Below, piece after piece: positions 30,063 through 64,000 of a DNA stretch of 64,000 nucleotides. Below the pieces are notes generated by a model. That model did not search any database. It was given only the letters and a program-made list of their open reading frames with translations, and was not told the DNA's origin. Location of the stretch: positions 18,534-82,533 of the forward strand of contig CAYQTU010000002.1 in assembly GCA_964420575.1 (NCBI GenBank). The letters run 5' to 3'. Positions within the stretch are counted from its first letter, which is position 1. Every line of letters starts with the position of its first letter. The stretch is from an uncultured bacterium. Lineage in GTDB: Bacteria > Omnitrophota > Omnitrophia > Omnitrophales > Aquincolibacteriaceae. Both the position numbers and the translations under genes were made by a program.

Positions 30063-30215
30063 CCGGCTTCCGCACCCGGGCATGCCGCCTTTTGGCCGCC
30101 TCTACACGCTTTTTCAGGTGTACGAACCGTTCGACTACGCTCCCTCGTCATATTTATTTTGCCTCGGGACCGTAGTCGAACGCTTCTAAGCCGGCATGCC
30201 GGGTGCGAATTCAAA
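30063..30215. repeat. long imperfect inverted repeat, candidate element boundary / recombination site
   Basis: TTCCGCACCCGGGCATGCCG...GAACCGTTCGACTACG (30063-30145) mirrored by CGTAGTCGAACG...CGGCATGCCGGGTGCGAA (30170-30212), asymmetric spacing; lies exactly where the + strand-only conjugation gene block begins. Confidence 0.5.
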
Positions 30216-30263
30216 GAAAAACTCCTTTTCCAACCTCTATTTTTAAAAAACAGAAAAAATATT

Positions 30264-30321
30264 TCTCAAAACCTACGAAAACCTATTCCGAACCCCCCTG
30301 TTTTGGCCCAATACTATGAGA
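30264..30321 (+). promoter_or_regulatory. conserved ~60-bp promoter-like element, copy 1 of 3
   Basis: TCTCAAAACCTACGAAAACCTATTCCGAA-N8-GTTTTGGCCCAATACTATGAG; near-identical copies at 47305-47365 and 52998-53063, all ~80-100 bp upstream of + strand genes. Confidence 0.6.
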
Positions 30322-30406
30322 GAACCTATAAATCAAAACGACCAGTCTTAAACCTGGTGCTACTTTTTTGGCCTTAAAGCCATAGACATAGAAAAGGAGA
30401 ACGACA

Positions 30407-30850
30407 ATGAAACGAGAACTGGACATCAGACGACGTGACTGTGCAATTTCCGTGAACTCGCAAAAGACCGTTTCCGGAAGTTTTTTGGCAAGATTGGGAA
30501 GGTTATTCGGTGCTGGCGTAAGTCTTGGTTTTGTGCTTTTTGTGGCCATAACCTCTTGCGCTTTGATGAACCGTGGTTCCAATTTTGCGTGGGCATCCTG
30601 GCAGGAGATGTGGAAAGAAGAAACACCGAAGCAGTCCCGGGAGATTGCGCTTCCGGTGCTGCCGAGCACCCGGAAAGCCCAACCCTATCGTCCGCAGGTT
30701 GTTGTGGCGCAGCAGCCATCCGTTATGGCTGCGGCGACCGTGAGACCTGTGGAGGATTACCGAATCGCGCAAGAGCGGCGCTTGCTTTTGAGCGATCTCT
30801 GGAGCCGTTTGAATCAGACGTTATCAACGGCCCGAAGTTTTTCGCGGTAA
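30407..30850 (+). CDS. hypothetical membrane protein
   Basis: RBS AAAGGAG 7 nt upstream of ATG; one TM helix (GAGVSLGFVLFVAITSCAL). Confidence 0.5.
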   Translation: MKRELDIRRRDCAISVNSQKTVSGSFLARLGRLFGAGVSLGFVLFVAITSCALMNRGSNFAWASWQEMWKEETPKQSREIALPVLPSTRKAQPYRPQVVVAQQPSVMAAATVRPVEDYRIAQERRLLLSDLWSRLNQTLSTARSFSR

Positions 30851-30946
30851 TCTTGATCGCAGGGTAAAAGGGGGAAGAGAGCAAATCTTCCCCCTTGCGG
30901 CGGTAAGCTTCTCCTTGGCGGGCCATTTCACAAGGAGGAGCTTCTA

Positions 30947-31711
30947 ATGAATCAACCGCCCGATAGCGAAAGTACCGCAATCGACGATTCTGACGATGAG
31001 TCAAAGATTATCACCCCGATTGAGTTAACGGATCGAGACATCGCGATTTTTAAATTGATCCACGAACACCGGTATTTGGCCTACGGCCAGATCCGGGAAG
31101 CGTTCTGGAAAGAGCGTTCGGAGTCGGCTAAAGCCTGTTACCGGCGGATCGAGCGGCTCATTAATTCAGGGTATCTTTCGAAAGGTTATTCCGGCCGAAA
31201 GAATCTGAACATCTATTTCGCGACCGAAAAATCCCTGGAGATCCTGAAAACTCGAAATCTCGATTCCGATATCCGACTTTATGAGCCCACCCCGTATTTC
31301 GATCGCTCCATCGACCATGATTTGAAAGTCGCAAGCGTAAGGATTTTCTTCCGGGAGTTTGGCCTGAGTGACTGGACCCCCGAAAGGGTGTTAAGGGAAC
31401 GCGATCATTTCTTTCGCGTCCCGGACGGTGTTTTGAATATTCGCGGGAAAAAGCTCGCAATCGAGTTCGAAAATCATCTGACGAAGAGCATGAAACGCTA
31501 TCAGGAAGTTTTTGATTATTACAGCGATCACAAGATCTATCTCCTGCTTCTCATGATTATCGACGGGGATACCAAGGACTGGCTCGTTCACGGAATGCGC
31601 TATAACGCCCAGAAGATCTGGATCACAACGTATCAGGAGCTGCTGAATGACAGGGAAGACACGCTTTTTGAAAATAAACGGGCCAGTTTCAAGCTGAGCC
31701 GGCTCTTTTAG
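30947..31711 (+). CDS. replication-relaxation (Replic_Relax) family protein
   Basis: 254 aa; N-terminal wHTH-like LTDRDIAIFKLIHEHRYLAYGQIREAFW...RRIERLINSGYL and C-terminal core HDLKVASVRIFF...VPDGVLNIRGKKLAIEFENH typical of this mobile-element family; RBS AAGGAGG. Confidence 0.55.
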   Translation: MNQPPDSESTAIDDSDDESKIITPIELTDRDIAIFKLIHEHRYLAYGQIREAFWKERSESAKACYRRIERLINSGYLSKGYSGRKNLNIYFATEKSLEILKTRNLDSDIRLYEPTPYFDRSIDHDLKVASVRIFFREFGLSDWTPERVLRERDHFFRVPDGVLNIRGKKLAIEFENHLTKSMKRYQEVFDYYSDHKIYLLLLMIIDGDTKDWLVHGMRYNAQKIWITTYQELLNDREDTLFENKRASFKLSRLF

Positions 31712-31719
31712 GGGGCGCG

Positions 31720-33540
31720 ATGCAAAAACCTCCTGTTAAAAGAGAACCGTTCCTCGTCCGTATGATCGGCGGGATTTTTGTGGGGATCCCTTTCGGGATT
31801 TCGAAGAGCATTCTGAATCTTTTGACGAGCCTTAAGCGTCCATCGCTTCAAAGACTGATCCCTGGGATACTTGTCTCGTTTTCGCTGTTTTGTGTTTTAA
31901 GGCTCGGCGCTCTTTTCGATCTGCTCGACCTTCTCTTTCAAAGCAGGCGGGTCGATCCCGGCTGGGCTGCGGGCGTGAAATTCGGGTTCTTTTTCCTGCT
32001 TTATCTCGTCATCACTCTCCCCGTTTTCCTGTGCTTTGCTTATTTGAATCAGGAAGCACGATTTTTCAAACAGGATCCAGTCAAACGAGACCCGTCTCCG
32101 GAACGGATGCGGTCTTTCCGCATGAAATCCGATTATCACAAGGTTTATCTGGGGTACGGCCTGAACCAGGAGAAACCTCTTTATCTCACCAACGACCAGC
32201 GCCTGATGCACTGCGAGGTGGTGGGAAGCACCGGCACCGGAAAAACGGAGTCCGTGCTTCTTCCGATGCTCGCCCATGACATCTCGCATGGGAAAGGCGC
32301 GATCATCATTGACGGAAAAGGGGACCTGGAACTCAGGGACAAGATCCGTTACATCGTCCATAAACAGAAGCGCGAGGATGACTTTTACTTCTTCTCGTTA
32401 AGCCATCCCCAAAAATCGAATACTTATAACCCGCTTTACCGCGGGAACCCCACGGAACTGAAAGACAAGCTCGTCAACAGCATGTCCTGGAGCGAGGAGT
32501 TTTACCGGCGCATGGCGGAACAAGCTGCGCTCACGCTTCTTAACGCCATCGCTTCCGCAGGCCGGAAACCCCGGTTTCGCGAGCTTCACGGCTATTTAAC
32601 GGACCTGCAAGCCTTACAAAAACTCTCGGATGAAACCAGGAGCCCGGTCCTGAAGGAAGACATTGGAAAAATGGTCACGGGTTTCAAGGACAATCACAAG
32701 TTTCTGGCCGGGTTAATATCCGATCTTTTCCTCACCTCAAGGAGCGAGTTCTCGGACCTTCTGGATACGGATGATCCCGATATCGATCTGCTTTCGCTTT
32801 ACGAGAATAACCAAATCTGCTATTTCGCGCTCGATCTTCAGAAATACGCGGATACTTCGCGGCGTCTCGGCCGGATGATCATCCAGGATATCCGTGCCGC
32901 TTCGAGCCATATCGTGTCCCATCTTACGGCTTACCGCCGTCATTTCTTCCCGGTGTTTATCGATGACGCCTCGAGTTTTTTGGAGCTTAATTTCATCGAT
33001 TTCCTGAATAAATGCCGGGCGAGCGGATATGCCGTTACGATTCTCCATCAATCCCTGGGGGACCTTGTTTACCGGGGGATGTCCAATTTCCAACAGCAGG
33101 TGGTCGAGAACACCAATATCAAGGTCATTTTGCGCCAGGATGATCCCTTTTCCGTGGAGAAGTTCGTGAAAATCGCCGGGACGCGCCGCACCATGATCGC
33201 GACTTACCAGACGCAGGAACAAATCCTTGGAAAAGGACTGACCGGCGCGGGCTCCGTTCGCGAAGGCCAGACTTTCCGCATCGAGCCGGACCTGATCCGG
33301 GGCCTTAAACGCGGCGAGGCCGCCTTGATCTGGAAAAACCCGTCTTTGTTGACCGATCATATTAAACTCGATTTCTTCGGGTACTCGAGTTATCCGGAAG
33401 AACCGTCCTCAAAAGACAACGGGGAGAAGATTCCAAAGAAAAAACGTGCAATAAAAACTCTCACCGAAGAAAAGGAGAAAACTCATGAGGAGATCAAAAA
33501 TCCGCTTGATATCATCAATCAATTAGAAAAAGAGAAATGA
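31720..33540 (+). CDS. type IV secretion coupling protein (VirD4/TraD/TraG-like ATPase)
   Basis: N-terminal TM helices, Walker A VVGSTGTGKTES, Walker B-like region FFPVFIDDASSFL, 606 aa. Confidence 0.8.
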   Translation: MQKPPVKREPFLVRMIGGIFVGIPFGISKSILNLLTSLKRPSLQRLIPGILVSFSLFCVLRLGALFDLLDLLFQSRRVDPGWAAGVKFGFFFLLYLVITLPVFLCFAYLNQEARFFKQDPVKRDPSPERMRSFRMKSDYHKVYLGYGLNQEKPLYLTNDQRLMHCEVVGSTGTGKTESVLLPMLAHDISHGKGAIIIDGKGDLELRDKIRYIVHKQKREDDFYFFSLSHPQKSNTYNPLYRGNPTELKDKLVNSMSWSEEFYRRMAEQAALTLLNAIASAGRKPRFRELHGYLTDLQALQKLSDETRSPVLKEDIGKMVTGFKDNHKFLAGLISDLFLTSRSEFSDLLDTDDPDIDLLSLYENNQICYFALDLQKYADTSRRLGRMIIQDIRAASSHIVSHLTAYRRHFFPVFIDDASSFLELNFIDFLNKCRASGYAVTILHQSLGDLVYRGMSNFQQQVVENTNIKVILRQDDPFSVEKFVKIAGTRRTMIATYQTQEQILGKGLTGAGSVREGQTFRIEPDLIRGLKRGEAALIWKNPSLLTDHIKLDFFGYSSYPEEPSSKDNGEKIPKKKRAIKTLTEEKEKTHEEIKNPLDIINQLEKEK

Positions 33541-33633: not shown

Positions 33634-33728
33634 CAGCCCGGAAAAAGGAGGTGATTTTGGCAAAGAAAAAAGCTTCAGCAGTTTCATAAATGTTTCAAAA
33701 AACCAATAAATCCAAAAGGAGAAAGACA

Positions 33729-34241
33729 ATGAATACCAAGAAAGAAAGCACCAAACACAGCGACAAGATCATCAAGGACGTTCCGCGTTTCGAGAACGAT
33801 ATTTACCGCGTCAGTTCGTGGACCGGTAAGGACGGAGCGTCCTTTTTGGATCTTCACGTGTATTACAAGAAGAACGGGGAGTTCACAAAAACGAAGGAAG
33901 GGATGAACGTCCGCTCGGACTTCCGCAAGGAAATCGCGGAAGCTCTTGTGGCCGCGAAATCCGCTCCGGCGCTTTCCCTTCCCGCCGAAGGCAAGAACTG
34001 TGAAACGGTTCTCGTGACAAGCGTCTCGATTTCCGAAACCGAGCAGTACCAGGTTTCGAAAGTCCGCGGTCCGAAGAACAGTTTCGTGCGGATCTCGTAC
34101 GCCTTCAAGGGGGACGAAGGAAACTTCATCCCGAATGGCAAGAAAGCCCTGTCCATTCTGGAGTCTTCCGTGGAAGGCGTGGTGGAGGCCCTCAAAAGCC
34201 CGGAAGCCGAGCCTGCGAAGGCGGCCGTTCACGCCGCTTAA
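33729..34241 (+). CDS. tandem PC4/YdbC-like putative ssDNA-binding protein
   Basis: ATG at 33729 after RBS AAAAGGAGAAAG. Two repeats resembling the PC4 fold signature: IYRVSSWTGKDGASFLDLHVYYKKNGEFTKTKEGMNV and YQVSKVRGPKNSFVRISYAFKGDEGNFIPNGKKALSI. Confidence 0.45.
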   Translation: MNTKKESTKHSDKIIKDVPRFENDIYRVSSWTGKDGASFLDLHVYYKKNGEFTKTKEGMNVRSDFRKEIAEALVAAKSAPALSLPAEGKNCETVLVTSVSISETEQYQVSKVRGPKNSFVRISYAFKGDEGNFIPNGKKALSILESSVEGVVEALKSPEAEPAKAAVHAA

Positions 34242-34312: not shown

Positions 34313-34495
34313 CAAGGAGGAGGTGATTTTTGTGCGGCTCATCATTCGCAAGCAGGATGAACTAAAACACGCCCATCTGATCCAGCGTTTCAAGCGCTTC
34401 GGCTGGGAAGTGATCGTGAAATGAATATCGGAACATGGGCGGGAAGTAACGCGTTCATTCCCGCCCATGTCTTCTACCGGGAAAGGAGTAGTCGT

Positions 34496-34726
34496 ATGAC
34501 GCGTTGTATTCGTTGCAAGAAAAGAATCAAAAGGAACGGTTATCAAATTTCTATCGTAAGACGGACAAGATCCGCGAACATTTTTAAGCCCGTATTTTTT
34601 TGGCACAGGGTTCTTGTCTCATTTTTGTGCTGGGCTTGCGTTCAAAATCCGGTCCGAATTGACAGGTTATTCAACCCAAAAGAAAAAAAGCAGGCTCTGA
34701 AACTTGCCCGGCTACGGGACTGGTAA
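34496..34726 (+). CDS. hypothetical small basic Cys-containing protein
   Basis: ATG 34496 preceded by GAAAGGAG; the ORF-track start (34421) would run through a perfect 11-bp hairpin (34433-34470), so the downstream start is preferred. Confidence 0.4.
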   Translation: MTRCIRCKKRIKRNGYQISIVRRTRSANIFKPVFFWHRVLVSFLCWACVQNPVRIDRLFNPKEKKQALKLARLRDW

Positions 34727-34740
34727 AGGAGGTTTTAAAG

Positions 34741-35199
34741 ATGCTTACACGCAAAGAATTACTCGAAATCGTGAATGAATTGAACAGCCAGAACGCCGGC
34801 CGCCAGGTCGGATACATCTCAGGTTACCGCGATCAATGGTTCATCGGGGGTTATATCGGCAGGGATAACTCCGACCGTCAGGAACTCGAACTGCATTTTT
34901 GTCAGGGGAGGAATGTCGGCCGGATCAATTTCAACGGCGGGTACACGGTTACGTTGGATATTACCCGTTGCAAGAACCAGCAGGAGGTGTTCGAGGAATT
35001 CGAACTCCTCGATCATCACAAGCGCTGCGAGAAGGAGCGGGCGGAAGAGCGGCAGGCAAAACTCGATGCCCGCTGTTTACGCTGCGTCAATTTTCTCGGA
35101 AGACTTACGAGAAACTGCAAACCCTCTTCAGAGTGCGGCTACAAACGTACTCGCCGCCGCGTCAAAGAAGCCCTAGCCTCGGTTAACGCCGGCTCATGA
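34741..35199 (+). CDS. hypothetical protein
   Basis: RBS AAAGGAGG 8 nt upstream; 152 aa; C-terminal Cys pairs. Confidence 0.55.
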   Translation: MLTRKELLEIVNELNSQNAGRQVGYISGYRDQWFIGGYIGRDNSDRQELELHFCQGRNVGRINFNGGYTVTLDITRCKNQQEVFEEFELLDHHKRCEKERAEERQAKLDARCLRCVNFLGRLTRNCKPSSECGYKRTRRRVKEALASVNAGS

Positions 35200-35483
35200 C
35201 CGTTAACAGAAAGGAAACTCTTATGCAACTCACTCGCCTCACCAAAAAAATTCATGGCAGTACCGCCTATATCTTCACGCCGATTCAGCAGGAAACCGGG
35301 AAGCGGATCAAACTCTGGATCAAAGAGAAATGGACCCCGAGAGGAAGATTAACCGGTTTTGACGTTACGGACGCGCGGACGGGAAGGAAATACCAGGCTA
35401 GAACCGCGCACTGCGATTTAGAGGGCTGTATTTGCGATGCCGTCATTCTCGGTTATCCCTCCCGACCCGATCGCAAAAAATAA
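35196..35483 (+). CDS. hypothetical protein
   Basis: 95-aa ORF overlapping previous stop; alternative ATG at 35223 with AAAGGAAA RBS. Confidence 0.45.
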   Translation: MTVNRKETLMQLTRLTKKIHGSTAYIFTPIQQETGKRIKLWIKEKWTPRGRLTGFDVTDARTGRKYQARTAHCDLEGCICDAVILGYPSRPDRKK

Positions 35484-35516
35484 GCGTCGTCTCAAATCAA
35501 ACCTAAGGAGAAAGTT

Positions 35517-35873
35517 ATGAAACTAAGAAAAAGAGAACTCGCCACCGTGCTTGCCGCGCTTCGAATGTTTCAGGCCCGGCCATCCACCGAAACCGGTCAT
35601 TTTGAGGATGTCCGGCCGCTTGGCGCAAAAAAGATTGATGGTCTGTGCGAGCGTCTAAATTGCGGTGTTTGTATCGGAGGGCTCAGCCACCGTAAGAATA
35701 AGGTCTTAAAGATCGTGGTGCATATCGAGGAAGGAATCGTTCAGGCGGTATACGCGAACGTTCCAAAAGCGAACGTCAGTGTTTATGACACTGATCCCGA
35801 ATTTAGAGAACTCGAGAAAGAGAAAAGGAATTTGAAACGGGCCATTAAGGGATTAATCGACGTTCGTAAATAA
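35517..35873 (+). CDS. hypothetical protein
   Basis: RBS TAAGGAGAAAG; 118 aa. Confidence 0.55.
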   Translation: MKLRKRELATVLAALRMFQARPSTETGHFEDVRPLGAKKIDGLCERLNCGVCIGGLSHRKNKVLKIVVHIEEGIVQAVYANVPKANVSVYDTDPEFRELEKEKRNLKRAIKGLIDVRK

Positions 35874-35899
35874 ACCGCACCATTCATTTAGAAATTCAC

Positions 35900-35936
35900 C
35901 GGGCAGGGCCGTGAAAGCGTCCCTGCCTTTTTCATT
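35900..35936 (+). terminator. rho-independent terminator
   Basis: GGCAGGG-CCGTGAAAGCGT-CCCTGCC then TTTTTCATT. Confidence 0.6.
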
Positions 35937-35952
35937 AAAGGAGGGAGAGTTT

Positions 35953-36456
35953 ATGGAATATCCGAACCGCGAAACGCTTCAAGCGGAGCTTTACCAGGAC
36001 CTGAAAAAACTGCTTCTTGAATATCACTCCGGTCTTTTTGAAACGAAGAAAAAGGAGGATGAAGGGGAACTTCTTATCAAGAAACTTTATCTCGATTCGC
36101 AGGAGGGCTGCGTTCCCGACGAATTTATCGGGGAGGAACTTCTCTATGCCGTGAAAGAGAAGTTTTACGCGATTTTCAGCGTGATCCGGGACAAAGTAGC
36201 GGCGGATTATTTGCACAAGAAGAACATCCATTGCCCCCCGATTTCAATTCTCATTGAAGCCTCGTATGAGGATGTCACGTATGTCGTTGTCTTGTTTCAA
36301 AACGCAGTGATCTCGGAGTACAACGCGAAGGCCTGGAATTTCGTGTGGATTTCACCCGAGGAACTCCAAAAAGAAATGGCGGATCTCTTTTACAAGATGA
36401 GGGACCGCCTTAACCAGTATTTCGTCGAAGGCATTCGCTACGTTAAACAAAAATGA
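35953..36456 (+). CDS. hypothetical protein
   Basis: ATG 35953 with AAAGGAGGGAG RBS (ORF-track start 35911 overlaps the terminator hairpin). Confidence 0.55.
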   Translation: MEYPNRETLQAELYQDLKKLLLEYHSGLFETKKKEDEGELLIKKLYLDSQEGCVPDEFIGEELLYAVKEKFYAIFSVIRDKVAADYLHKKNIHCPPISILIEASYEDVTYVVVLFQNAVISEYNAKAWNFVWISPEELQKEMADLFYKMRDRLNQYFVEGIRYVKQK

Positions 36457-36486
36457 CCCTGCTCACTTTAAAAGGAGAACATTCCC

Positions 36487-37593: not shown

Positions 37594-37621
37594 TTCACAT
37601 TCAAACCAAAGGAGAACCAAG

Positions 37622-56826: not shown

Positions 56827-58409
56827 TGACGATCAAGATCCCCGTTCCCGGGTGGTTCAAGGACCCTAGAAAAAGAACGGGGCTTTTTCTTGGGACAGTG
56901 TTCGTGCTGACGCTTGCCGCCACTTATCTTGTGGCCTCCTCCGTTGTTATGACGGAAGACACGTTTCTTTTGAGCGCGGCATGGATCGCTGGCTTCGGGT
57001 TTCTCTTCTTTAACGTGGCCTATCTTTTTCTGACAAGCGCGGTGCATCCATTCCTTAAGACGCCTATCCTGAAAGAAGACTACGTGAAACGGTTCCCGAA
57101 AGTGGCGCTGGTTTATCCGATCCGCAATGAATCCTACGGGATGTCGCAGAGAATGCATTATTCGTTTTCCGGCAATAAATTCCATAACGTGGATCTGTGG
57201 ATTCTTTCGGATTCTGCCGAGGAGTTTTCGCCCTATGAAGCGAACCTTGTCGCGAAACTCGAAGCTCTTCATCCCGGCCGCGTGTTTTATAGAAGAAGAG
57301 CGCATCCGGTTGAGCGGAAACAGGGGAATATCGCCGAGTTTCTGCATTCGCATCCGGAGTATGACTACCTATATATATGCGACGCGGATGGAATGGTGCC
57401 CAAGGGGACGCTCCTTAAGCTACTCAGGAAAGCGGAACATCCCGAAAACCGGGATATCGCGATCTTTCAGGCGTTCGTCAGGATCGCGCACGCGACGACC
57501 TGGTACTCGCGCTTTGAAAGGATCGGAACGCAGTTTGCGCAGCGCCTGAACTTCGTCGCGGTTCAAGCGATATTCGGGCGCACTATCTCTTTCGGGCATC
57601 ATCATCTTGCCCGGAGAGAAGCGATTTCCAAGATCCGACTCCCCAAGGGACTGCTTTCGCACGATAACTGGGACACCGTTCGCCTGGATCAGATGGGATA
57701 CCGGGTCGCGTTTTGTCCGGATGTGGAGGCTTATGACGAAGCGCCCTCGAACTACCTTGAGGCGAAGGCAAGGGCGAGCCGCTGGGCACAGGGAACGCTT
57801 CAAGGCGTGCCCCTTATTTTTGAGCCGAACGTGTCGCTCGCTTCCCGGTTTCTCGCCGGCTACGGTATTTATCTTTACCTTTCGGATATCGTGTTCTTTT
57901 TTTGGGTGTTGCTCGGGCTCTTTTCACATTCCTTGGTCACCGGGGAACTGATCTATTTCCGGATCGATTCGCTCTGGATGAATTTTTTCTCGAATCAGAT
58001 CCTGAAATGGATCCTTCTGTTCAGTCTTGCGGTTGTTTTTCTGCATAAAGCCGTGATCGTGAAAACGTGGGAAGATGTCCGCCATTATCTTTATGAACTC
58101 GTTATCTCGACTTTGGTCACGCTCAATAACTTTATCTACAGCCCGCTCGCCATTCTGAGCATCCCTTTAAAGAAGCTGAACTGGCGGCCCATGGTGAAAA
58201 ACCCGTTCGCCACGGTAGATTTCGCCACCGCGGTCCGCTCGCTATGGATCGGGACCGTGTTCGGGCTCTTCGGTCTTTATTTTTGCACGAATCTCACGCC
58301 GTACTTCGTTTGGCAGATAACGCCCATTCTCATCAGTCTTATTTTTTCGATACCTGCAGTCTATTTCACAGCAAAATCAATTCCCGCGAAATTGAGAAGC
58401 TGGATTTGA
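56823..58409 (+). CDS. membrane glycosyltransferase family 2, OpgH/MdoH-like
   Basis: KQGNIAEF, YLYICDADGMV (D,D), DNWDTVR, RASRWAQGTLQ (QxxRW-type) plus N- and C-terminal TM helices; 4-nt overlap with TolC-like gene. Confidence 0.7.
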   Translation: MMTIKIPVPGWFKDPRKRTGLFLGTVFVLTLAATYLVASSVVMTEDTFLLSAAWIAGFGFLFFNVAYLFLTSAVHPFLKTPILKEDYVKRFPKVALVYPIRNESYGMSQRMHYSFSGNKFHNVDLWILSDSAEEFSPYEANLVAKLEALHPGRVFYRRRAHPVERKQGNIAEFLHSHPEYDYLYICDADGMVPKGTLLKLLRKAEHPENRDIAIFQAFVRIAHATTWYSRFERIGTQFAQRLNFVAVQAIFGRTISFGHHHLARREAISKIRLPKGLLSHDNWDTVRLDQMGYRVAFCPDVEAYDEAPSNYLEAKARASRWAQGTLQGVPLIFEPNVSLASRFLAGYGIYLYLSDIVFFFWVLLGLFSHSLVTGELIYFRIDSLWMNFFSNQILKWILLFSLAVVFLHKAVIVKTWEDVRHYLYELVISTLVTLNNFIYSPLAILSIPLKKLNWRPMVKNPFATVDFATAVRSLWIGTVFGLFGLYFCTNLTPYFVWQITPILISLIFSIPAVYFTAKSIPAKLRSWI

Positions 58410-58428: not shown

Positions 58429-59496
58429 ATGAGTGACACACAGACGAACGAAAAACCCGAGAAAGACAAAAATAAAAACACGCAGGAGCCAGCTCTTTTT
58501 GAAGAGAAAACGGAGGGGGGCGGTAAATGGAAAACGAGAGTTTTCCTGATCCTTCTTATCCTGGGAGTGGGCCTTATTTTCTGGCCCAAGGGATACATCA
58601 AGGGAGAAGGGATTGTTCAAGCCGATCGGTTTGCGAGGATCGGGCTTACGAGTTCGGGGATTCTGAGGGAGCTGCTGCATAAGAAAGGGGATACGGTGAA
58701 GAAAGGAGAGTTGCTCGTGCGTTTCGAGAATCCGGAACTCTCCCGGAAATTCGAGGAACGGAAACTGAACCTCGAGATCCTGAATCACGATAAAACACGG
58801 CTTGAAAAGCAGGTTGAATTTCTCGCTAAAGACAAAGACCGGAAGAGCATTCTTTTCGAGAACGGAGTAATCGGCCGTCTTCAGTTCGATAAAGCCGCGC
58901 TGGATTATACCCAGGTCGCGGAAGAACTCAGTATGCGCTTAAAAGAGATCGAGTCGGTTGAAGGGGAAGTGAAATATTTGAAGGAAAGAGCGGAGTCACT
59001 TGAGCTTAAAGCGCCGTTTGACGGAATGCTTCTTACGGATCCCGGTATTACGATCGGGAATCTCTTGAAGGAAGGCGATTTTGTTTTGGAATTTGCGGAC
59101 CCGCGAAGTTTCTTTCTTGAAGTTCTTGTGTTTGAAAAGGAAGTGGAAAAGGTCGCGCCGGGAAACACCGTCACGGCCCGATTCCGTGCTTTTCCCTGGA
59201 AGACTTATTCCGGGGTTGTGACGGAGGTTGGTCCTCGCACCACCGATGAGATCGAGAAAGTTTTTAATGTGAAACACGTGGTCCCTTGCGAGATCAAATT
59301 GGATGAGTTCCCATCAAACGCGAAATACGGAATGCGTGCCTGGATCAAGATCAGCGGAAGACGCCGGATCTTGCAAAATAAGACGCCAGTAATCCAAAAA
59401 CCTTCTCAGGAGGAGCTTGCGAGATTCATCAATCCGAAGGCGCTCGATATGAAAGCTCCGGGTAAGGAGAAAGCAAACGATGTACCGGTTAAATAA
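58429..59496 (+). CDS. HlyD-family membrane fusion / periplasmic adaptor protein
   Basis: N-terminal TM, biotinyl/lipoyl-like hairpin TSSGILRELLHKKGDTVKKGELLVRFENPEL, coiled-coil, beta-barrel C-term. Confidence 0.75.
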   Translation: MSDTQTNEKPEKDKNKNTQEPALFEEKTEGGGKWKTRVFLILLILGVGLIFWPKGYIKGEGIVQADRFARIGLTSSGILRELLHKKGDTVKKGELLVRFENPELSRKFEERKLNLEILNHDKTRLEKQVEFLAKDKDRKSILFENGVIGRLQFDKAALDYTQVAEELSMRLKEIESVEGEVKYLKERAESLELKAPFDGMLLTDPGITIGNLLKEGDFVLEFADPRSFFLEVLVFEKEVEKVAPGNTVTARFRAFPWKTYSGVVTEVGPRTTDEIEKVFNVKHVVPCEIKLDEFPSNAKYGMRAWIKISGRRRILQNKTPVIQKPSQEELARFINPKALDMKAPGKEKANDVPVK

Positions 59497-59538: not shown

Positions 59539-60336
59539 ATGAACGCAATTATTCTGGCAGCCGGTTTTGGAACGCGCCTTTATCCGTTGACCCAATTCAA
59601 ACCGAAAGCGCTTCTTGAAATCGGAGATAAAACCATCCTCGATCATTTGGTCGAGAAATTGGAAGCTTCTCCGGTCATTCAAAAGATCGTTTTAGTGACG
59701 AATGGAAGGTTTGCCGTCGATTTCATGGAATGGGCAAAGAAAAGGACCGCGTTGACTCGAAAACCGATCCGGATCGTTGAAAATAACGTGTACGAACCGG
59801 AAAAAAGATTGGGAGCGGTTCAGGACCTGCGGCTTGGAATGCAAGTCGAACGAAACCGCACGGCTGGTTATGTTGTTTTGTGCGGGGACAATTACTTTGA
59901 TTATCCGTTGACGCATTTCATTGGTCTTTACTGTACCGGGCACAGGAACGGCGCTTTCGTCGGACTTTATGACGTGAAAGACAAATCCGTCGCGACGCAA
60001 TACGGTGTCGTGGAAGTCGATCACACGGGACGTATTAAGGATTTTCAGGAAAAACCGGAAAATCCAAAATCAACGCAGGTAAGTGTCGGTGTCTACTACA
60101 TTCCGAATAAATTCCAAAGGTACGTTACGGAATACCTCGAAATCGAGAAACTGAATCCCGACAAGATCGGCGATTTTTTCGCGTGGCTTGCCAAAAAGGA
60201 AATTCTGCACGGCGTGGACTTTGACGGAGCCTGGTTTGATATCGGTTCAATCGAATCCTACGAAGAAGCGAGAGAGTATTTCGATACCAAGCGGTCTGCT
60301 GAATGCGCCTCAAAGGAGGGCAAGGGAAATGAATGA
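59539..60336 (+). CDS. sugar-phosphate nucleotidyltransferase (NTP_transferase family)
   Basis: MNAIILAAGFGTRLYPLTQFKPKALL signature G-x-G-T-R-L. Confidence 0.85.
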   Translation: MNAIILAAGFGTRLYPLTQFKPKALLEIGDKTILDHLVEKLEASPVIQKIVLVTNGRFAVDFMEWAKKRTALTRKPIRIVENNVYEPEKRLGAVQDLRLGMQVERNRTAGYVVLCGDNYFDYPLTHFIGLYCTGHRNGAFVGLYDVKDKSVATQYGVVEVDHTGRIKDFQEKPENPKSTQVSVGVYYIPNKFQRYVTEYLEIEKLNPDKIGDFFAWLAKKEILHGVDFDGAWFDIGSIESYEEAREYFDTKRSAECASKEGKGNE

Positions 60337-61513
60337 AAAAAATAGTCTCGTGAAAAAGGGGGAGGAAATAGCGAAAAGATCGGCGGAATACCGCGAGCTT
60401 TTCACTCAGATTTCGACACTGATTGAGGAAGGAAGAAAAGCCGCGGTTCGTCAGATTAATACGACGCTGATTGCGACTTATTGGATGATCGGGATGAGGA
60501 TTGTTGAATTTGAGCAGGGAGGCAAGGAAAGGGCCGCTTATGGGGAAGAGACCTTACGAAATCTCGCTGGGGAGCTTTCGAAGAAGTACGGCAATGGATT
60601 CAGCTTCCCACAGCTTAAAAATATACGTCAGTTCTATTTGGTGTATCGACAAGATGGGTTTAAACCATCCAGTCAGGTAGCACTCCAAAAAGGCTACACA
60701 CTGTGTAGCCAATTTCCCTACCTTCTTAGAGAAATAAACACCCATTTCACTCTTTCATGGTCTCATTACCGGCTCCTTATGCGAATAGAAGATCCTTACA
60801 AGCGCTCTTTTTATGAAAAATTGAGTGTTCAGAATCATTGGTCGGTCCGACAGCTCGACCGGGAAATCAATGCGCTGCTTTATGAAAGAACAGCTCTATC
60901 GAAACGTAAGGATATTGTGCTTGCTCGAGCCAATGAGAACCCGATTGTCGCAAGACCTGAAGATGAGGTTAAAGATTCCTATGTTTTAGACTTTCTCGGG
61001 CTTAAAAAAGATTACGCGGAATCCGATCTAGAGGATGCGTTGATCCGCCATCTTGAGAATTTCCTCCTTGAACTTGGCCGGGGTTTTGCGTTTGTTGCTC
61101 GTCAGAAAAGATTTGCCGTAGACGGCGACGAATACCGGATCGATTTGTTGCTCTACAACATCCTCTTGAAGGCCTATATAGTTCTGGAGCTGAAACTTAC
61201 CAAGTTCACTCATGCCCACGCCGGCCAAACGAATTTCTATGTCAATTGGGTAAAAGACAACGTTCTGCCGCAAGCGGAAAATGATCCGATCGGCATTATC
61301 CTCTGTTCTGACAAGAACAATACGACCGTCAGGTACGCGACCGGCGGCCTCAATAACAAGATTTTTGTCTCCAAATACCAGCTTCAATTACCAAAACCGG
61401 AAGAACTCGAAAGAGAGCTTGAACGCGGGAAGCAGCTATTCTTGCAAAATCACGTTAACCGTGAGGCCGGTCTCGATCAGAAAGCCCAAGAGAAGCGGGA
61501 GAAAGAGCAATGA
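60329..61513 (+). CDS. YhcG/DUF1016-type PD-(D/E)xK nuclease family protein
   Basis: ATG 60329 after AAAGGAGGG; N-terminal helical domain (LSWSHYRLLMRIEDPYKRSFYEKLSVQNHWSVRQLDREI) and C-terminal restriction-endonuclease-like core (RIDLLLYNILLKAYIVLELK). Confidence 0.7.
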   Translation: MNEKNSLVKKGEEIAKRSAEYRELFTQISTLIEEGRKAAVRQINTTLIATYWMIGMRIVEFEQGGKERAAYGEETLRNLAGELSKKYGNGFSFPQLKNIRQFYLVYRQDGFKPSSQVALQKGYTLCSQFPYLLREINTHFTLSWSHYRLLMRIEDPYKRSFYEKLSVQNHWSVRQLDREINALLYERTALSKRKDIVLARANENPIVARPEDEVKDSYVLDFLGLKKDYAESDLEDALIRHLENFLLELGRGFAFVARQKRFAVDGDEYRIDLLLYNILLKAYIVLELKLTKFTHAHAGQTNFYVNWVKDNVLPQAENDPIGIILCSDKNNTTVRYATGGLNNKIFVSKYQLQLPKPEELERELERGKQLFLQNHVNREAGLDQKAQEKREKEQ

Positions 61514-62151
61514 GAAAGATGATTTTTTTGATCCTGTGTTTTATCACGGTTGCCGGATGTGCGGCGCCTAAGCTCCCGGGAAAACCAGATATCGATAGTT
61601 CGCTCCATTCGGATCAGAGGCTATCGGTTGGGGTGGCGAATACCATAGATGAAAGAGACAGTGAAAAAATAGGAATGATCGGCGCGGCAGCCGTCATTGT
61701 TAAGAAAAGCGATCTCGCTGACTTAGTGGGAAACCGTTTGATTCGCTACATCAATGAAAAAATTGGCCTCGATGTGGAACGCGTCCAGCTCAATGAAACA
61801 GATTCCATAAAATTGATCACGACTAGAAAAAAGATGAAAGGCGTCATTATTTTGAAAATCAAGTCACTTAGCATATTTGCGGCGGGGGCTTTAACTCATC
61901 CCATTGAAGCAAAAATGATCCTTGAACTGACCGTTCTGGATGAAACCGGCCAAAAAGTTTATCAAAGGATAGCGAATGGTCACCATAAACAGCAGGTGAC
62001 GATTCCCATAACCGAAGAAACAACGAAAGCTCTTGTTGAATCGGTTATTAAAACGGCGCTGAGGCAATACGGCGAAGACCCGGATTTGAAAAAAATAATC
62101 GCCAAATTCAAATATGGAACTATTGGCGGAGTGATCGCCAGCATTTTTTAG
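61510..62151 (+). CDS. lipoprotein, hypothetical
   Basis: Lipobox ITVAGC at N-terminus (MRKMIFLILCFITVAGCAAP). Confidence 0.6.
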   Translation: MRKMIFLILCFITVAGCAAPKLPGKPDIDSSLHSDQRLSVGVANTIDERDSEKIGMIGAAAVIVKKSDLADLVGNRLIRYINEKIGLDVERVQLNETDSIKLITTRKKMKGVIILKIKSLSIFAAGALTHPIEAKMILELTVLDETGQKVYQRIANGHHKQQVTIPITEETTKALVESVIKTALRQYGEDPDLKKIIAKFKYGTIGGVIASIF

Positions 62152-62219
62152 AAAAACAAAACAAGGCCTATTCTAAATTTAAACACGGGAAAGGTAATTC
62201 AAAGAAAGGAGTAAGTAAA

Positions 62220-62819
62220 ATGAGACAGAAATTCACGATTGGTATTTTGGCGGGTTTGATGGTCGCGGCCTTCGCGGTTCAATCGCAAGCGATGGCGGCC
62301 GCGGAAGAATTGGTTATCGCTGATTTCAATACGGGTGACAAACCTAATAATATCGGGGGTGATTTCGGCGTATGGAATAAGGATCCGGATGACTCAACGC
62401 AGAAATCCGAAATGAAATTTGAGTCGGATGATACATTGGGTGATAGTACTGGTTATTCGATTCGCTTGGACTATGATGTGGACTCTCCGAATCCTGCATA
62501 TAACGGGTTCTGGATGAAGCTGAACGGCGTGGATGCGACTCCCTATAATTCTCTGACGTTTTATGTGAAAGGGGATACGAAAGCAGGATTCACGAGGCGG
62601 GTAAAGATCGAATTGAAGGATAAGAGCAACAAACCTTCAGCCTACATTGTTGGAAATATCACGGACCAATGGCAAAAGGTTTCAATCCCGTTTGATAAAA
62701 TTCGTCACATTCAGGATTGGAATTCGCTCAACGAATTCGTAATTGTTTTTGATGATCTGAATTCAAATCCTAAAACGGGAACAATTTTTATTGATCAGAT
62801 TGCTTTTTCAAAAGAATAA
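62220..62819 (+). CDS. secreted beta-sandwich protein, possibly carbohydrate-binding (CIA30/CBM11-like)
   Basis: Signal peptide MRQKFTIGILAGLMVAAFAVQSQA; motif GFWMKLNGVDATPYNSLTFYVKGD resembles CIA30-type domains; weak. Confidence 0.4.
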   Translation: MRQKFTIGILAGLMVAAFAVQSQAMAAAEELVIADFNTGDKPNNIGGDFGVWNKDPDDSTQKSEMKFESDDTLGDSTGYSIRLDYDVDSPNPAYNGFWMKLNGVDATPYNSLTFYVKGDTKAGFTRRVKIELKDKSNKPSAYIVGNITDQWQKVSIPFDKIRHIQDWNSLNEFVIVFDDLNSNPKTGTIFIDQIAFSKE

Positions 62820-62913
62820 GTTGGCTCTACTGTAAAGTAGATGACAGGCAATGCCGTCTCTAAGTACAATACGACGATAAATCCTTTTTTATGATAAGAA
62901 TAGAGAGACGGTT

Positions 62914-63123
62914 ATGAGGATTCCTTCTGGATCAATAGAACTGCATGAGGCAGCTCAAAAATACGGTCTTACTTGGGGTGGATTACGGAAAGCCATTGAT
63001 AGAAAACGTCTCAAGGGTTTCAAGATCGGCTTGACATGGTTTACTACTACGAAAGAAGTGAAACAGTATCTAGAGAAGCGAAATGTGGATAAGATCCCAT
63101 TGAAGTACAGGAAAAAAGCTTGA
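62914..63123 (+). CDS. excisionase-like HTH protein (putative recombination directionality factor)
   Basis: LHEAAQKYGLTWGGLRKAIDRKRLKGFKIGLTWFTTTKEVKQYLEKR resembles Xis/HTH_17 pattern; located just upstream of the serine recombinase gene. Confidence 0.45.
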   Translation: MRIPSGSIELHEAAQKYGLTWGGLRKAIDRKRLKGFKIGLTWFTTTKEVKQYLEKRNVDKIPLKYRKKA

Positions 63124-63144
63124 GGGAGCAAAAATTTTTTGATA

Positions 63145-63169
63145 GTATGTGTCTATCAAATAGACACAT
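63145..63169. promoter_or_regulatory. perfect 11-bp inverted repeat TATGTGTCTAT-caa-ATAGACACATA
   Basis: Direct reading of sequence; sits between the Xis-like gene and the recombinase gene. Confidence 0.6.
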
Positions 63170-63478
63170 AAGATAAGCGAAAATTGGTCTAAGAAGAACC
63201 CCGGCTTCAGAAATTTCCTCTTTGGGGCGCATTTAAAACGCTTCCCAAGGGGGTGGGCAACATGGGAGATCATAAGATCTCTCGACCGGGACAAGAGACC
63301 AAAAAGACAAGATTACAAAAAAGAAAAAAGCTCCAAAAAGTCGAGGTTTTGCTCAGATGTGAAGGAGAGCGATCCACTGAAAATGAATCTAATGATAAGA
63401 AAAATTCAAAAAACTCTTGTGAGACGATCGAATCCTTTCGCGACTTTATCTATTATTGGGCATTGGAGGTTGCGATAA

Positions 63479-64000
63479 ATGAACAACACAAGAACAACGG
63501 CTATTTATTGCCGGGTATCGACGGAAATTCAACGGGAAAGAGAAACGATTAATACTCAGAAAAAAAGGCTCGGGGATTTTTGTGAACGACAAGGTTTTAA
63601 TCCATTCGAACAATATATTGATGACGGATTCTCTGGAGGGGATCTGGATCGTCCTGAAATGACAAGATTGTTAAAGGATATCAAAGGCGGGAAAGTTGGA
63701 ATTGTGCTTGTTACTGAACCTTCACGGTTAAGTAGGGACTCGGGCGATAATAGTCACTGGATAGGGATATTCGAAGAGTTTGATATTGAATTTTATGCCA
63801 TAAATTATGGACTTAGGATTAAGCGAAACGAAAATGGCGGGTATAAAAATCCAATTTTGAAAACAGGCAATTTTATATCCGAATCGGAAAGAGATAACAT
63901 TCGGAATCGAGTGAGTTTCGCAATGTATCAAAGAACTAAAGAGGGAAAGTGGAATGGCGGAGTTGTTCCTTTTGGATATACAACCTTTCATGAAGAAGTA
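63479..64000 (+). CDS. large serine recombinase (resolvase/invertase catalytic domain), 3'-truncated by window edge
   Basis: MNNTRTTAIYCRVSTEIQRE... with catalytic-Ser motif Y-x-R-V-S-T-x-x-Q, then DDGFSGGDLDRPEMTRLL and LVTEPSRLSRD conserved blocks. Confidence 0.85.
   Translation, partial: MNNTRTTAIYCRVSTEIQRERETINTQKKRLGDFCERQGFNPFEQYIDDGFSGGDLDRPEMTRLLKDIKGGKVGIVLVTEPSRLSRDSGDNSHWIGIFEEFDIEFYAINYGLRIKRNENGGYKNPILKTGNFISESERDNIRNRVSFAMYQRTKEGKWNGGVVPFGYTTFHEEV

Follow-up and report, generated by a model that had tools for sequence, protein, structure and literature searches.

A conjugation gene cluster with a MOB_C-type relaxase, a candidate oriT and a large serine recombinase, probably the core of an integrated conjugative element of Candidatus Omnitrophota

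The window analysed here, a stretch of 64,000 nucleotides, carries a compact gene cluster whose order recurs at no fewer than 15 loci in Omnitrophota MAGs. From 30407 to 64000 every long open reading frame with a profile match or a conserved homolog lies on the plus strand, with tight or overlapping junctions and AGGAGG-like sites upstream of most starts, as a first-pass annotation had described. The left flank and the first operon comprise the following features.

27991–28230, −: Xre-type HTH regulator (HTH_3, 36.7 bits; HTH_31)
28390–29475, +: LacI-family regulator (LacI and Peripla_BP_3)
29601–30002, +: g29601, Cys-rich 133-aa protein with four CxxC motifs, conserved directly upstream of the inverted repeat
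30071–30207, unstranded: nested long inverted repeat, candidate oriT (outer arms GCACCCGGGCATGCC; inner arms of 21 nt)
30262–30320, +: promoter/operator copy 1, ahead of the relaxase–coupling protein operon
30407–30850, +: small membrane protein, first gene of operon 1 (homologs at the same position: L018, 78%; L025 and L029, 26–32%)
30947–31711, +: MOB_C-type relaxase, MarR-like wHTH and PD-(D/E)XK-like domain (Replic_Relax, 31.1 against 25.3 bits)
31720–33540, +: VirD4/TraD-type coupling protein, T4CP (TrwB_AAD_bind, TraG-D_C and T4SS-DNA_transf above cut-offs)
33690–34241, +: conserved 183-aa protein, possible PC4-like ssDNA binder, kept after the T4CP gene in relatives
34421–46017, +: accessory region (Pfam), variable in content among relatives
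36487–37593 and 37622–38680, +: Cys-rich paralogs of the accessory region
38734–39780, +: MoxR-like AAA_5 (Pfam)
40206–41315, +: DUF2201 metallopeptidase/VWA (Pfam)
44474–45544, +: DUF932 (Pfam, at or above gathering score)
46579–46654, +: two terminator-like hairpins (stems of 12 and 14 pairs, then T runs) closing operon 1
46644–47306, +: two-domain sigma-70 region-4 HTH regulator without region 2 (Sigma70_r4, 67.5 bits, two stretches)
47299–47357, +: promoter/operator copy 2, ahead of virB2

Of the gene types that recur beside the cluster, the Xre-type gene lies furthest left: a minus-strand HTH_31/HTH_3 gene stands at the equivalent position in L018, L025 and L029, and DNA homology between L025 and L029 begins at this gene. 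The LacI gene is a variable insert between it and g29601, being absent from L025 and L029 and only 57% identical to its counterpart in the closest relative, JAKLIQ01 (JAKLIQ), versus 85–90% for the adjoining genes. JAKLIQ has variable cargo of its own, an R-M cassette at 30003/30040. No family match was obtained for g29601 in profile searches; its dN/dS against JAKLIQ is 0.09, and genes homologous to it stand ahead of the repeat in L018 (85%) and in L025 and L029 (29%).

The inverted repeat folds as DNA with −43.1 kcal/mol (z = −6.4 versus shuffles) and is conserved in L018, L025 and L029, where six pairs are kept via two-sided compensatory changes; the relaxase gene lies 0.74 kb downstream. 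The first-pass annotation was right about the existence and good folding of this repeat, which it had taken as a boundary of the element. Because g29601 and the Xre-type genes stand to its left in distant relatives, the repeat sits inside a conserved block that reaches leftward at least to 27991, and these genes rule out the boundary role; the left end of the element is not at 30063. The repeat is an internal conserved element, and most likely an oriT.

In the relaxase the catalytic-type residues are conserved and the wHTH fold is supported. Its family, Replic_Relax (PF13814), belongs to the MOB_C superfamily, the traits of which were taken from a review article, so the earlier statement that a canonical MOB relaxase is missing has to be withdrawn. 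The coupling protein has the Walker A motif GSTGTGKT and scores 113.6 bits, below cut-off, with SXT_TraD, while dN/dS of the small membrane protein is 0.22. The 183-aa protein after the T4CP gene is conserved in L004, L006, L008, L016 and L029; the window protein gave no match to support its description as PC4-like, and a weak PF02229 match was found for the L029 homolog only. The accessory region had no PHROG or PADLOC matches, and the corresponding content in other relatives includes RadC, amidoligase/GATase, IS1595 or a group II intron.

A 59-nt promoter/operator repeat occurs in three copies of 81–95% identity. Different elements share its 3' half, GTTTTGGCCCAATACTnTGAG; its 5' half differs from element to element but is common to the copies within one element. 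The sigma-region-4 regulator, which probably starts downstream of its TTG, also matches UPF0122/YlxM and the sigma70-ECF superfamily; in every relative its gene immediately precedes virB2. No other core protein is as poorly conserved (76% to JAKLIQ; dN/dS 0.24), which parallels the divergence of one operator half. The remainder of the cluster is composed as follows.

47444–47779, +: VirB2/TrbC pilin (PF04956, 35.1 against 27.9 bits)
47791–48069, +: VirB3/TraL-like protein (TraL, 19.5 bits in Pfam and 20.7 bits with TIGR02762, both below cut-off)
48036–50579, +: VirB4/TraC ATPase (P-loop_TraG, 118.7 bits; AAA_10; TraC_F_IV)
50701–51468, +: secreted 255-aa protein at the VirB5 position, conserved in all relatives (48–87%)
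51476–52336, +: VirB6/TrbL-like polytopic membrane protein (TrbL, 20.3 bits, below 25.9; TraJ weak)
52333–52980, +: bitopic 215-aa protein at the VirB8 position, conserved (58–92%)
52995–53053, +: promoter/operator copy 3, ahead of virB9
53049–54170, +: VirB9/CagX (CagX, 37 against 34.2 bits; TIGR02781 VirB9, 41.8 bits, below cut-off), with the signal peptide near 53148 as the probable true start
54158–55147, +: VirB10/TrbI (TrbI, 67.7 against 35 bits; NF038091, 51 bits)
55172–55420, +: conserved 82-aa protein after virB10 (48–98% identity in all relatives covering the locus), no family match
55441–56826, +: TolC-like outer-membrane factor (OEP, 134.6 bits; TIGR01844 below cut-off)
56823–58409, +: OpgH/MdoH-like processive GT2 glucan synthase (Glyco_trans_2_3)
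58429–59496, +: HlyD/RND-type periplasmic adaptor (HlyD_D23 and HlyD_3; RND_mfp, 69 bits)
59539–60336, +: sugar-1-phosphate nucleotidyltransferase (NTP_transferase, 133.6 bits)
60188/60329–61513, +: YhcG PD-(D/E)XK nuclease (YhcG_C, 194.5 bits; DUF1016_N, 136 bits)
61510–62151, +: lipoprotein (lipobox VAGC)
62220–62819, +: secreted 199-aa protein (86% identical in JAKLIQ, 70% in L035)
62914–63123, +: 69-aa HTH protein, encoded shortly before the integrase gene, candidate recombination directionality factor
63479–64000, +: N-terminal 174 aa of a large serine recombinase, LSR (Resolvase, 90.2 bits), cut by the window end

Pfam matches at or above the gathering score bear out the earlier calls of a Replic_Relax protein, a VirD4-like ATPase, VirB2, VirB4, VirB9, VirB10, DUF932, YhcG and a serine recombinase. 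VirB2 is 97% identical to that of JAKLIQ, and VirB4 reaches 272 bits with the TraC-F-type model TIGR02746, below the 567 cut-off, its nearest plasmid homologs being from Myxococcus (27%) and Thermus (22–23%). The VirB3 and VirB6 calls do have Pfam matches, but only below cut-offs; position and conservation in all relatives also speak for the VirB3/TraL-like gene. For the proteins called VirB5 and VirB8, position was the sole ground, as neither matched Pfam, NCBIfam or PDB profiles; a single-sequence AF2 model of the latter was unusable (pLDDT 58). That VirB11 and VirB1 are absent was confirmed by profile searches of all plus-strand ORFs of 30–64 kb. The failure of profile searches to identify VirB5, VirB8, VirB7, VirB11 or VirB1, together with NCBIfam scores far below curated cut-offs for the T4SS, T4CP and MobC proteins alike, counts against an integrative conjugative element (ICE).

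The glucan synthase bears an RWAQG motif and matches NF003958 (MdoH) over residues 19–519 with 156.6 bits, below the 419 cut-off, and the closest NCBIfam models of the nucleotidyltransferase are UDP-glucose/NDP-sugar pyrophosphorylases. Synthase, adaptor, TolC-like factor and nucleotidyltransferase follow virB10 in 8 of 10 relatives (9 of 11 loci including the window). We know of no role of such a glucan-export module in conjugation. Further to the right, the YhcG nuclease is a member of PDC-S02, a candidate defence family (432 bits), the lipoprotein has homologs of 24–79% identity in JAKLIQ, L004, L008, L009, L011, L032 and L035, and the secreted 199-aa protein matches only MAM, weakly. The 69-aa protein, earlier termed Xis-like, scores 19.2 bits with HTH_17, short of the cut-off of 27; its gene likewise precedes the LSR in JAKLIQ (94%) and L032, and a 50%-identical homolog of 73 aa is encoded two genes upstream of a tyrosine recombinase in L035.

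The window part of the LSR (dN/dS 0.03) is 94% identical to the 555-aa LSR of JAKLIQ, which has Resolvase, Recombinase and Zn_ribbon_recom domains. There, the LSR lies directly against comM, which is interrupted at codon ~349 and truncated after NPCPC, with the DNA breakpoint at L023 13612–13618. The comparison with an empty site proposed in the first-pass annotation was informative: in a near relative (contig L036) comM is intact (505 aa) and flanked by the identical neighbours, and JAKLIQ defines the right junction, placing the right end of the element ~1.1 kb past the window. ComM homologs are mostly of 505 aa, and truncated forms of 353–366 aa recur. The window's own right junction lies outside the sequence, which we counted against the ICE reading. 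Integrase modules are swapped among members of the family, which carry LSR-1, an LSR of 29% identity (adjoining miaB in L032) or a tyrosine recombinase (L035, whose T4SS proteins are 64–84% identical to those of the window). One MAG holds two copies that are 80–83% identical, and identity between two MAGs is 94.5%. All 21 genes tested, including those for relaxase, T4CP, T4SS and LSR, have dN/dS of 0.03–0.24.

The combination of a conjugation module with a serine recombinase points to an ICE, and the dN/dS values, the comM junction, the empty site and the integrase swaps lend it support, as do the shared gene order, the variable cargo, the paired copies in one MAG and the conservation of the inverted repeat and the promoter/operator pattern. 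We therefore consider it probable that this region forms the part of an integrated conjugative element that serves conjugation and integration, and that such elements make up a family widespread in Candidatus Omnitrophota. By its sequence it appears to be a complete conjugation machine with its own relaxase, candidate oriT and integrase, kept by selection, and we infer that the element is mobile at present. The ICE proposed by the first-pass annotation is thus partly supported: the T4SS, T4CP and relaxase profiles, the LSR at a broken comM, the exchange of integrases and the two copies in one MAG agree with it, but the repeat as its end and the missing relaxase are wrong, and its size is unproven.

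Since the JAKLIQ LSR joins comM at codon ~349, the left end has to border on the 3' half of comM. Neither this half nor the adjoining Usp gene was found in the window or, for JAKLIQ, in the 6.9 kb that precede g29601; hence the left end is not locatable inside the window, and the proposed size of ~34 kb is unproven. No left junction was seen in the window or the JAKLIQ left flank, and the lack of any detected P'-arm or attB remnant also counts against an ICE. The first-pass annotation had named gene order shared with flanking genes in distant relatives as an observation that would speak against its proposal; such order is found in part, on the left side only, as an HK-RR-RR-(−)gene array in L025 and as a 55%-identical giant gene syntenic with the cluster in L029. 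This makes a long-resident or a larger element possible. The larger one would be delimited by the recombinase, far exceed 34 kb (at least 65 kb) and enclose the whole window, with the two-component genes, a c-di-GMP riboswitch, the 5005-aa giant gene, a glycoamylase and LacI as cargo. It would account for the absent comM 3' half, for the left-side genes accompanying the T4SS cluster while the right flank varies (comM, miaB or another giant gene), for the near-identical tetranucleotide composition of giant gene and T4SS genes (r = 0.94) and for the dS of the flanking glycoamylase (0.85), which equals that of the element genes and weighs against the ICE reading as well. Yet HK/RR are only 22–30% identical between window and L025, versus 47–62% for the T4SS core, and differ in composition (GC 0.40, r = 0.47); L025/L029 DNA homology extends only from the Xre gene rightwards, and the larger element, too, lacks a visible left junction. 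Moreover, chromosomal synteny around comM itself is deeply conserved in these genomes, so that conserved neighbours need not be cargo. We regard this alternative as unlikely.

It is similarly doubtful that the cluster has long been resident and is now immobile, either as an ICE locked in place once attL was lost or as a domesticated T4SS, and that selection keeps it for a host function such as cell–cell contact, DNA release/uptake or envelope glucan export instead of for self-transfer. The composition of the element resembles that of the chromosomal flank and gives no sign of recent acquisition, which speaks for such a resident and against an ICE, as do the missing attL, the locus shared by window and JAKLIQ with dS equal to the flank, the left-side synteny and the linkage of the T4SS to the glucan-export module. 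Against it stand strong purifying selection on the relaxase, T4CP, oriT-like repeat, LSR and its HTH partner, the near relative with intact comM, the interruption of this site in several lineages, the swapping of integrases and the presence of more than one copy in a MAG. A conjugative plasmid, or an assembly that wrongly joins plasmid and chromosome, would fit the plasmid-typical T4SS, relaxase and T4CP and the many contigs ending near the integrase, but is hardly credible given the same chromosomal-gene junctions in independent NCBI, JGI and ENA assemblies, the LSR–comM junction exact at DNA level and profile matches that include no gene for replication or partition.

Cumulatively, an integrated conjugative element of this kind might work as follows. 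The Xre-type repressor and the two-domain sigma-70 region-4 regulator would control three transcription units, each starting at a copy of the 59-nt promoter/operator. The MOB_C relaxase of unit 1 may nick the nested inverted repeat, the same unit supplying the coupling ATPase and accessory leading-region proteins, and units 2 and 3 would supply the mating pore, made of VirB2/3/4/6/9/10, from a deep TraC-like (F-like) lineage and lacking VirB11 and VirB1. The OpgH-like synthase, adaptor, TolC-like channel and NDP-sugar synthase could produce and export a glucan with a role in mating, through aggregation or envelope remodelling. At the right end, the LSR and its small HTH partner would integrate the element, the target in the closest relative being comM codon ~349.

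Two known systems invite comparison. The oriT2 of pAD1, on which the MOB_C relaxase TraX acts, is reportedly (Francia et al. 2013) also a large inverted repeat, like the one described here. The combination of MobC, VirD4 and a serine integrase is known in streptococcal IMEs, which speaks for the ICE reading of the present cluster.

Profile searches of the window ORFs against Pfam and NCBIfam, on which the family calls listed here are based, placed all ORFs with profile matches or conserved homologs between 30407 and the window end on the + strand, with tight or overlapping junctions.

Element genes recognised by profile match; weak matches are marked
30947-31711, + strand: Replic_Relax protein
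31720-33540, + strand: VirD4/TraD-like coupling ATPase (T4CP)
38734-39780, + strand: MoxR-like AAA_5 protein
40206-41315, + strand: DUF2201 metallopeptidase/VWA protein
44474-45544, + strand: DUF932 protein
46644-47306, + strand: protein of two sigma-70 region-4 domains
47444-47779, + strand: VirB2/TrbC
47791-48069, + strand: TraL/VirB3-like protein (weak)
48036-50579, + strand: VirB4/TraC
51476-52336, + strand: TrbL/VirB6-like protein (weak)
53049-54170, + strand: CagX/VirB9
54158-55147, + strand: TrbI/VirB10
55441-56826, + strand: TolC-like outer membrane efflux protein (OEP)
56823-58409, + strand: OpgH/MdoH-like GT2
58429-59496, + strand: HlyD-type adaptor
59539-60336, + strand: sugar nucleotidyltransferase
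60329-61513, + strand: YhcG
62914-63123, + strand: HTH_17 protein (weak)
63479-64000, + strand: serine recombinase, resolvase domain, cut by the window end

A relaxase, a T4CP, VirB4 and further mating-pore proteins are all encoded in the window according to the Pfam and NCBIfam matches, which is the gene content expected of an ICE. The VirB4 ATPase carries Walker motifs, as seen in the window sequence and the profiles, and the outer-membrane core is present as VirB9 and VirB10, with CagX and TrbI both above their Pfam cut-offs. VirB5, VirB7 and VirB8 were not picked out by profile searches of the window ORFs. The first-pass annotation had named a VirB5 (50701-51468) and a VirB8 (52333-52980), and these calls lack profile support of any kind: PDB profile searches with the two candidates returned chance-level matches only, and a single-sequence AF2 prediction for the VirB8 candidate could not be used (pLDDT 58). 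The absence of VirB11 and VirB1, reported in the same annotation, was borne out, as no T2SE or SLT match was found in any + strand ORF of 30-64 kb. Although TraC-F-type was the best model for VirB4, its score was 272 bits vs. a cut-off of 567, and the F-specific families TraF/H/N/U/W were unmatched in Pfam and NCBIfam. Among plasmid VirB4 proteins the closest, those of Myxococcus (27%) and Thermus, are only 22-27% identical, and the T4SS probably represents a separate deep lineage. The element probably works like an ICE joining a MOB_C relaxase, a TraD-like T4CP, a TraC-like VirB4 pore without VirB11 and a large serine recombinase (LSR). The initial description of a ~34-kb ICE starting at 30063, between an inverted repeat and a serine recombinase, is partly confirmed, and its reading as an ICE partly supported; its boundaries need correcting and its size is unproven.

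The Replic_Relax protein (30947-31711) matched PF13814 with 31.1 bits vs. a gathering score of 25.3; the NCBIfam model MobC_subf scored it at 43 bits (E = 2.8e-11), below the cut-off of 200. PF13814 is the Pfam counterpart of the MOB_C superfamily, and CONJscan puts Rel_PF13814 proteins in MobC (PMC5357655), so the first-pass annotation, which recognised no canonical MOB relaxase, needs correcting on this point. The protein combines an N-terminal MarR-like winged helix-turn-helix with a C-terminal PD-(D/E)XK domain in which D, ExE, K and RY are conserved. A relation to PD-(D/E)XK enzymes is described for MOB_C relaxases in general, and a winged helix at the N-terminus for TraX of pAD1 (PMC12857230). 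Fifty homologs were found; aligning 17 of these showed E40, D160 (in PDG), E173, N176, K180 and Y185 to be invariant and E175 and R184 nearly so. These residues correspond to the pattern reportedly mutated in TraX by Francia et al. in 2013. The nearest plasmid match is only 24% identical, direct comparison with the CloDF13 ORFs detected no similarity, and a scan of viral contigs with the relaxase profile returned no relatives. We conclude that the element encodes a recognised, though divergent, MOB_C relaxase with predicted nicking activity. As a separate observation, one homolog (P0029), 56% identical, is on a 33.7-kb contig labelled as belonging to a Desulfobacterales MAG, which reflects either transfer outside Omnitrophota or mis-binning.

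Scanning a genome collection with VirB4 recovered 15 loci of 57-89% identity, nine titled Candidatus Omnitrophota/Omnitrophica and six uncultured bacterium. The backbone conserved by tblastn runs from Replic_Relax, T4CP and the PC4-like protein, through a variable middle, to the region-4 regulator and VirB2 through VirB10, and on to an 82-aa protein, TolC, GT2, the adaptor, the nucleotidyltransferase and a lipoprotein at 61510. The relative closest to the window is JAKLIQ010000005.1 (JAKLIQ). Comparison of the two gave a dN/dS of 0.03-0.24 in all 21 element genes tested, among them the relaxase, T4CP, pore genes, glucan module, small HTH and LSR, which argues that these genes are functional and not decaying.

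Only the Resolvase catalytic domain of the LSR lies inside the window, but the JAKLIQ ortholog, 94% identical over the visible 174 aa, is a 555-aa protein with Resolvase, Recombinase and Zn_ribbon_recom domains, and its gene is convergent with a comM that stops after ...AAMNPCPC. In a metagenome contig, AMWB02136182.1 (L036), comM is intact (505 aa, 91% identical) and has the same neighbours as in JAKLIQ; DNA homology between the two breaks off at 13612-13618 of L023, the comM side of JAKLIQ, equivalent to comM codon ~349, and a restored comM (attB junction) would read ...GCCACAAGGACAAGG... The right junction (attR side) and the empty site are seen in relatives only (JAKLIQ and L036); the left junction was found neither in the window nor in JAKLIQ. 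Among ComM homologs, mostly 505 aa, nine are forms of 353-366 aa, and the two short forms inspected also adjoin LSR genes, which belong to other elements. In Omnitrophota, no fewer than three different elements with an LSR break codon ~349 (L023 13590-14663; P0061 in ERZ1426832; L117 10001-12642). Conservation of the genes on the 5' side of comM extends over ComM identities of 60-91%. The recurrence of short ComM forms beside LSR genes of several elements marks codon ~349 as an LSR hot spot in this clade. Separately, locus L037 carries two extra copies of the last ~38 comM codons (2751-2864 and 3444-3539) after an intact comM, and these look like scars of other islands aimed at the comM 3' end.

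The integrase itself is exchanged within the family. At the same place, locus L032 has an LSR only 29% identical, beside miaB, and locus L035, with T4SS proteins 64-84% identical to those of the window, has a 650-aa tyrosine recombinase. Among near relatives comM is intact or interrupted, integrases and right flanks differ, and cargo varies between family members. One MAG holds two copies of the cluster, 80-83% identical to each other, one of which is 94.5% identical to the copy in another MAG. Taken together, the LSR-comM junction, integrase exchange, paired copies and variable cargo fit the behaviour of an integrative mobile family.

The inverted repeat at 30071-30207, which folds into a strong structure and lies 0.74 kb upstream of the MOB_C relaxase gene, had been taken as the left boundary of the element. 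It is internal to a conserved block: a Cys-rich 133-aa gene (29601-30002, g29601) and a minus-strand Xre-type gene recur to its left in L025 and L029, two related clusters whose relaxases are only 47-50% identical to that of the window. These left-hand genes recur in distant relatives, as does the repeat, and its role as a boundary is therefore rejected. Its outer arms are nearly identical in L025 and L029, its inner arms differ, and six base pairs are preserved via changes on both sides. Position inside the block and compensatory changes also rule it out as an att site. The two-sided changes and the conservation in L025 and L029 point to a structure-constrained DNA element, for which an oriT is the best reading we can infer.

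The window to the left of 30 kb holds the following.

Features left of 30 kb
Response regulators and a 7TM histidine kinase
9734-9824, + strand: c-di-GMP-I-GGC riboswitch RF03167 (68.5 bits, gathering score 59), followed downstream by a 132-aa ORF and the giant ORF
10989-26006, + strand: giant ORF, 5005 aa, sole family match HEAT_2 near the C-terminus
26019-27824: PF10091 glycoamylase (profile match)
Xre-type gene on the minus strand; LacI regulator (profile match)

If the element lies in comM, its left end must adjoin the comM 3' half, with the Usp gene of L036 beyond. Both are absent from the entire window and, in JAKLIQ, from the 6.9 kb that precede g29601. No P' arm or attB remnant was found in the window or the loci searched, and a ComM C-terminus scan of metagenomes for attL was dominated by generic ComM via DRIDIHIE, with a single close locus, in which comM is intact. 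Homology between the window and JAKLIQ is broken only by a 5.85-kb R-M cassette between window positions 30003 and 30040, and the glycoamylase flank has a dS of 0.85, the same as the element genes. Left-side synteny is conserved in distant relatives: in L025 an HK-RR-x-RR-(-)gene block resembling window 3458-8479 precedes the cluster, and the place before the L029 cluster is taken by a giant gene with 55% identity to that of the window. DNA homology between L025 and L029 is limited to the Xre gene and rightwards. GC and tetranucleotide composition gave no sharp left edge; the T4SS, glucan and giant-gene segments are alike in composition and also like the chromosomal flank, and GC is low in the LSR module, the R-M cassette and the HK/RR block. 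The only Logan match identical to the window was a 2.5-kb contig.

Two readings of the left side remain, each given a low probability. Either attL has undergone loss or rearrangement and the element has long been resident, or the LSR delimits an element of at least 65 kb carrying the giant gene as a passenger, together with the c-di-GMP riboswitch and two-component genes. The C-terminal half of the giant ORF is 55% identical to the giant gene that immediately precedes this T4SS cluster in L029-L031, and its N-terminal ~400-aa module is common to other giant genes (L035, L117) at 24-27%. Were this larger element real, conjugation would be linked to giant-gene spread, with a self-transmissible element carrying Omnitrophota giant genes between lineages. 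A role in predation or host attachment has been suggested for such genes. That the giant gene behind the L035 integrase reflects a circular permutation of the window was rejected, as the two have in common only a 27%-identical N-terminal module, which a chromosomal giant gene shares too.

Expression of the element may be organised by a 59-nt sequence present in three copies (30262, 47299 and 52995), each heading a gene block. Its 3' half (GTTTTGGCCCAATACTnTGAG) is conserved across elements; its 5' half varies between elements and is uniform among the copies of one element. We read this as a putative common promoter core joined to an element-specific operator; a canonical sigma-70 scan did not call the 59-nt repeats as promoters. 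The obvious candidate for binding the repeat is the adjacent two-domain region-4 protein (46644-47306), the fastest-evolving core protein (76% identity, dN/dS 0.24 vs. JAKLIQ). The first block ends in strong hairpins that resemble terminators (46579-46654). A hairpin with a T run at 30341-30368, ~20 nt downstream of the first copy and ahead of the first gene, may be an attenuator or short leader RNA.

The TolC-GT2-adaptor block was found in eight of the ten relatives covering the interval and is missing in L008 and L011. The best GT2 score against the MdoH equivalog was 156.6 bits vs. a cut-off of 419; nonetheless the alignment is full length. We know of no described counterpart, in conjugative systems, of a glucan synthase/adaptor/TolC/nucleotidyltransferase block within the pore operon, and with low confidence regard mating aggregation via a glucan, or envelope remodelling, as its likeliest role. 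PF10091 'putative glucoamylase' genes occur on both sides of the locus (window 26019-27824, L023 19951-20633, L036 3377-4654), and a beta-glucan theme may connect host and element genes.

Among the accessory genes, searched with PHROGs and PADLOC, only YhcG was matched. This nuclease (60329-61513) scored 432 bits against PDC-S02, listed in PADLOC as a candidate single-gene defence family, and its gene is kept beside the integrase module in JAKLIQ, L032 and L035. Tandem Cys-rich paralogs of ~360 aa (36487-37593 and 37622-38680) are conserved in JAKLIQ and in a further related cluster, L016 (41-46%); neither matched Pfam or PADLOC, and the first had no PHROGs match. In L025/L026, a group II intron reverse transcriptase/maturase (13439-15253; RVT_1, Intron_maturas2, HNH) sits between the T4CP and PC4-like genes.

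Omnitrophota are ultra-small bacteria, most of them uncultured, for which a predatory or symbiotic life is suspected; to our knowledge their mobile elements have barely been described. Our literature search returned large odd elements without classical ICE machinery and one textbook plasmid, and no VirB-type ICE family in this phylum. The conjugation system, which is conserved, kept by selection and native to the phylum, would be a natural route of gene flow. The locus is also a candidate genetic tool, as it combines a candidate oriT and a relaxase with an LSR whose comM target is defined, and it allows a test of why a glucan synthase and exporter sit in a mating-pore operon.

The closest parallels to the transfer functions are the MOB_C systems TraX/oriT2 of Enterococcus pAD1 and MobC of CloDF13. 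The likeness comprises the PF13814 family and an adjoining VirD4-type T4CP gene, an N-terminal MarR-like winged helix with a C-terminal PD-(D/E)XK-type domain bearing conserved acidic, Lys and Arg-Tyr residues, and, close to the relaxase gene, a large inverted repeat that has short direct repeats ~60-85 bp away; here, in contrast, the host is a diderm candidate phylum and nicking is predicted. Streptococcal IMEs of class 8 share the trio of MobC relaxase superfamily, VirD4 coupling type and serine integrase, a combination described for streptococcal IMEs (PMC5357655), but these are small, mobilizable only, without a mating pore and in Gram-positive hosts, whereas the window has a full VirB-type pore. 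F-like and SXT-R391-like T4SS provide the best models (TraC-F-type, SXT_TraD, TraL), and VirB11 is absent as in F-type systems (PMC12857230). The window scores are, however, less than half of the curated cut-offs, and VirB9 and VirB10 fit P-type models. Glucan systems pairing a GT2 with a membrane-fusion protein include BgsA/BgsB of Sinorhizobium. With these and OpgH/MdoH the module shares a processive GT2, flanking transmembrane segments, full-length MdoH alignment and a periplasmic adaptor partner, but it has no OpgG, and its GT2 is built into a T4SS operon that also encodes a TolC-like protein and an NDP-sugar synthase. LSR-borne integrative elements that insert within genes include Tn5397/TndX, SCCmec Ccr and SPbeta, and the present family resembles them in having the LSR gene at an end of the element, where in JAKLIQ it converges on the interrupted target, and in precise intragenic insertion at comM codon ~349 in the closest relative. 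In Acinetobacter, comM is the island hot spot of AbaR, and there as here several different elements use the same site; AbaR, however, moves by Tn7-like transposition and not by an LSR, whereas the window element has an LSR.
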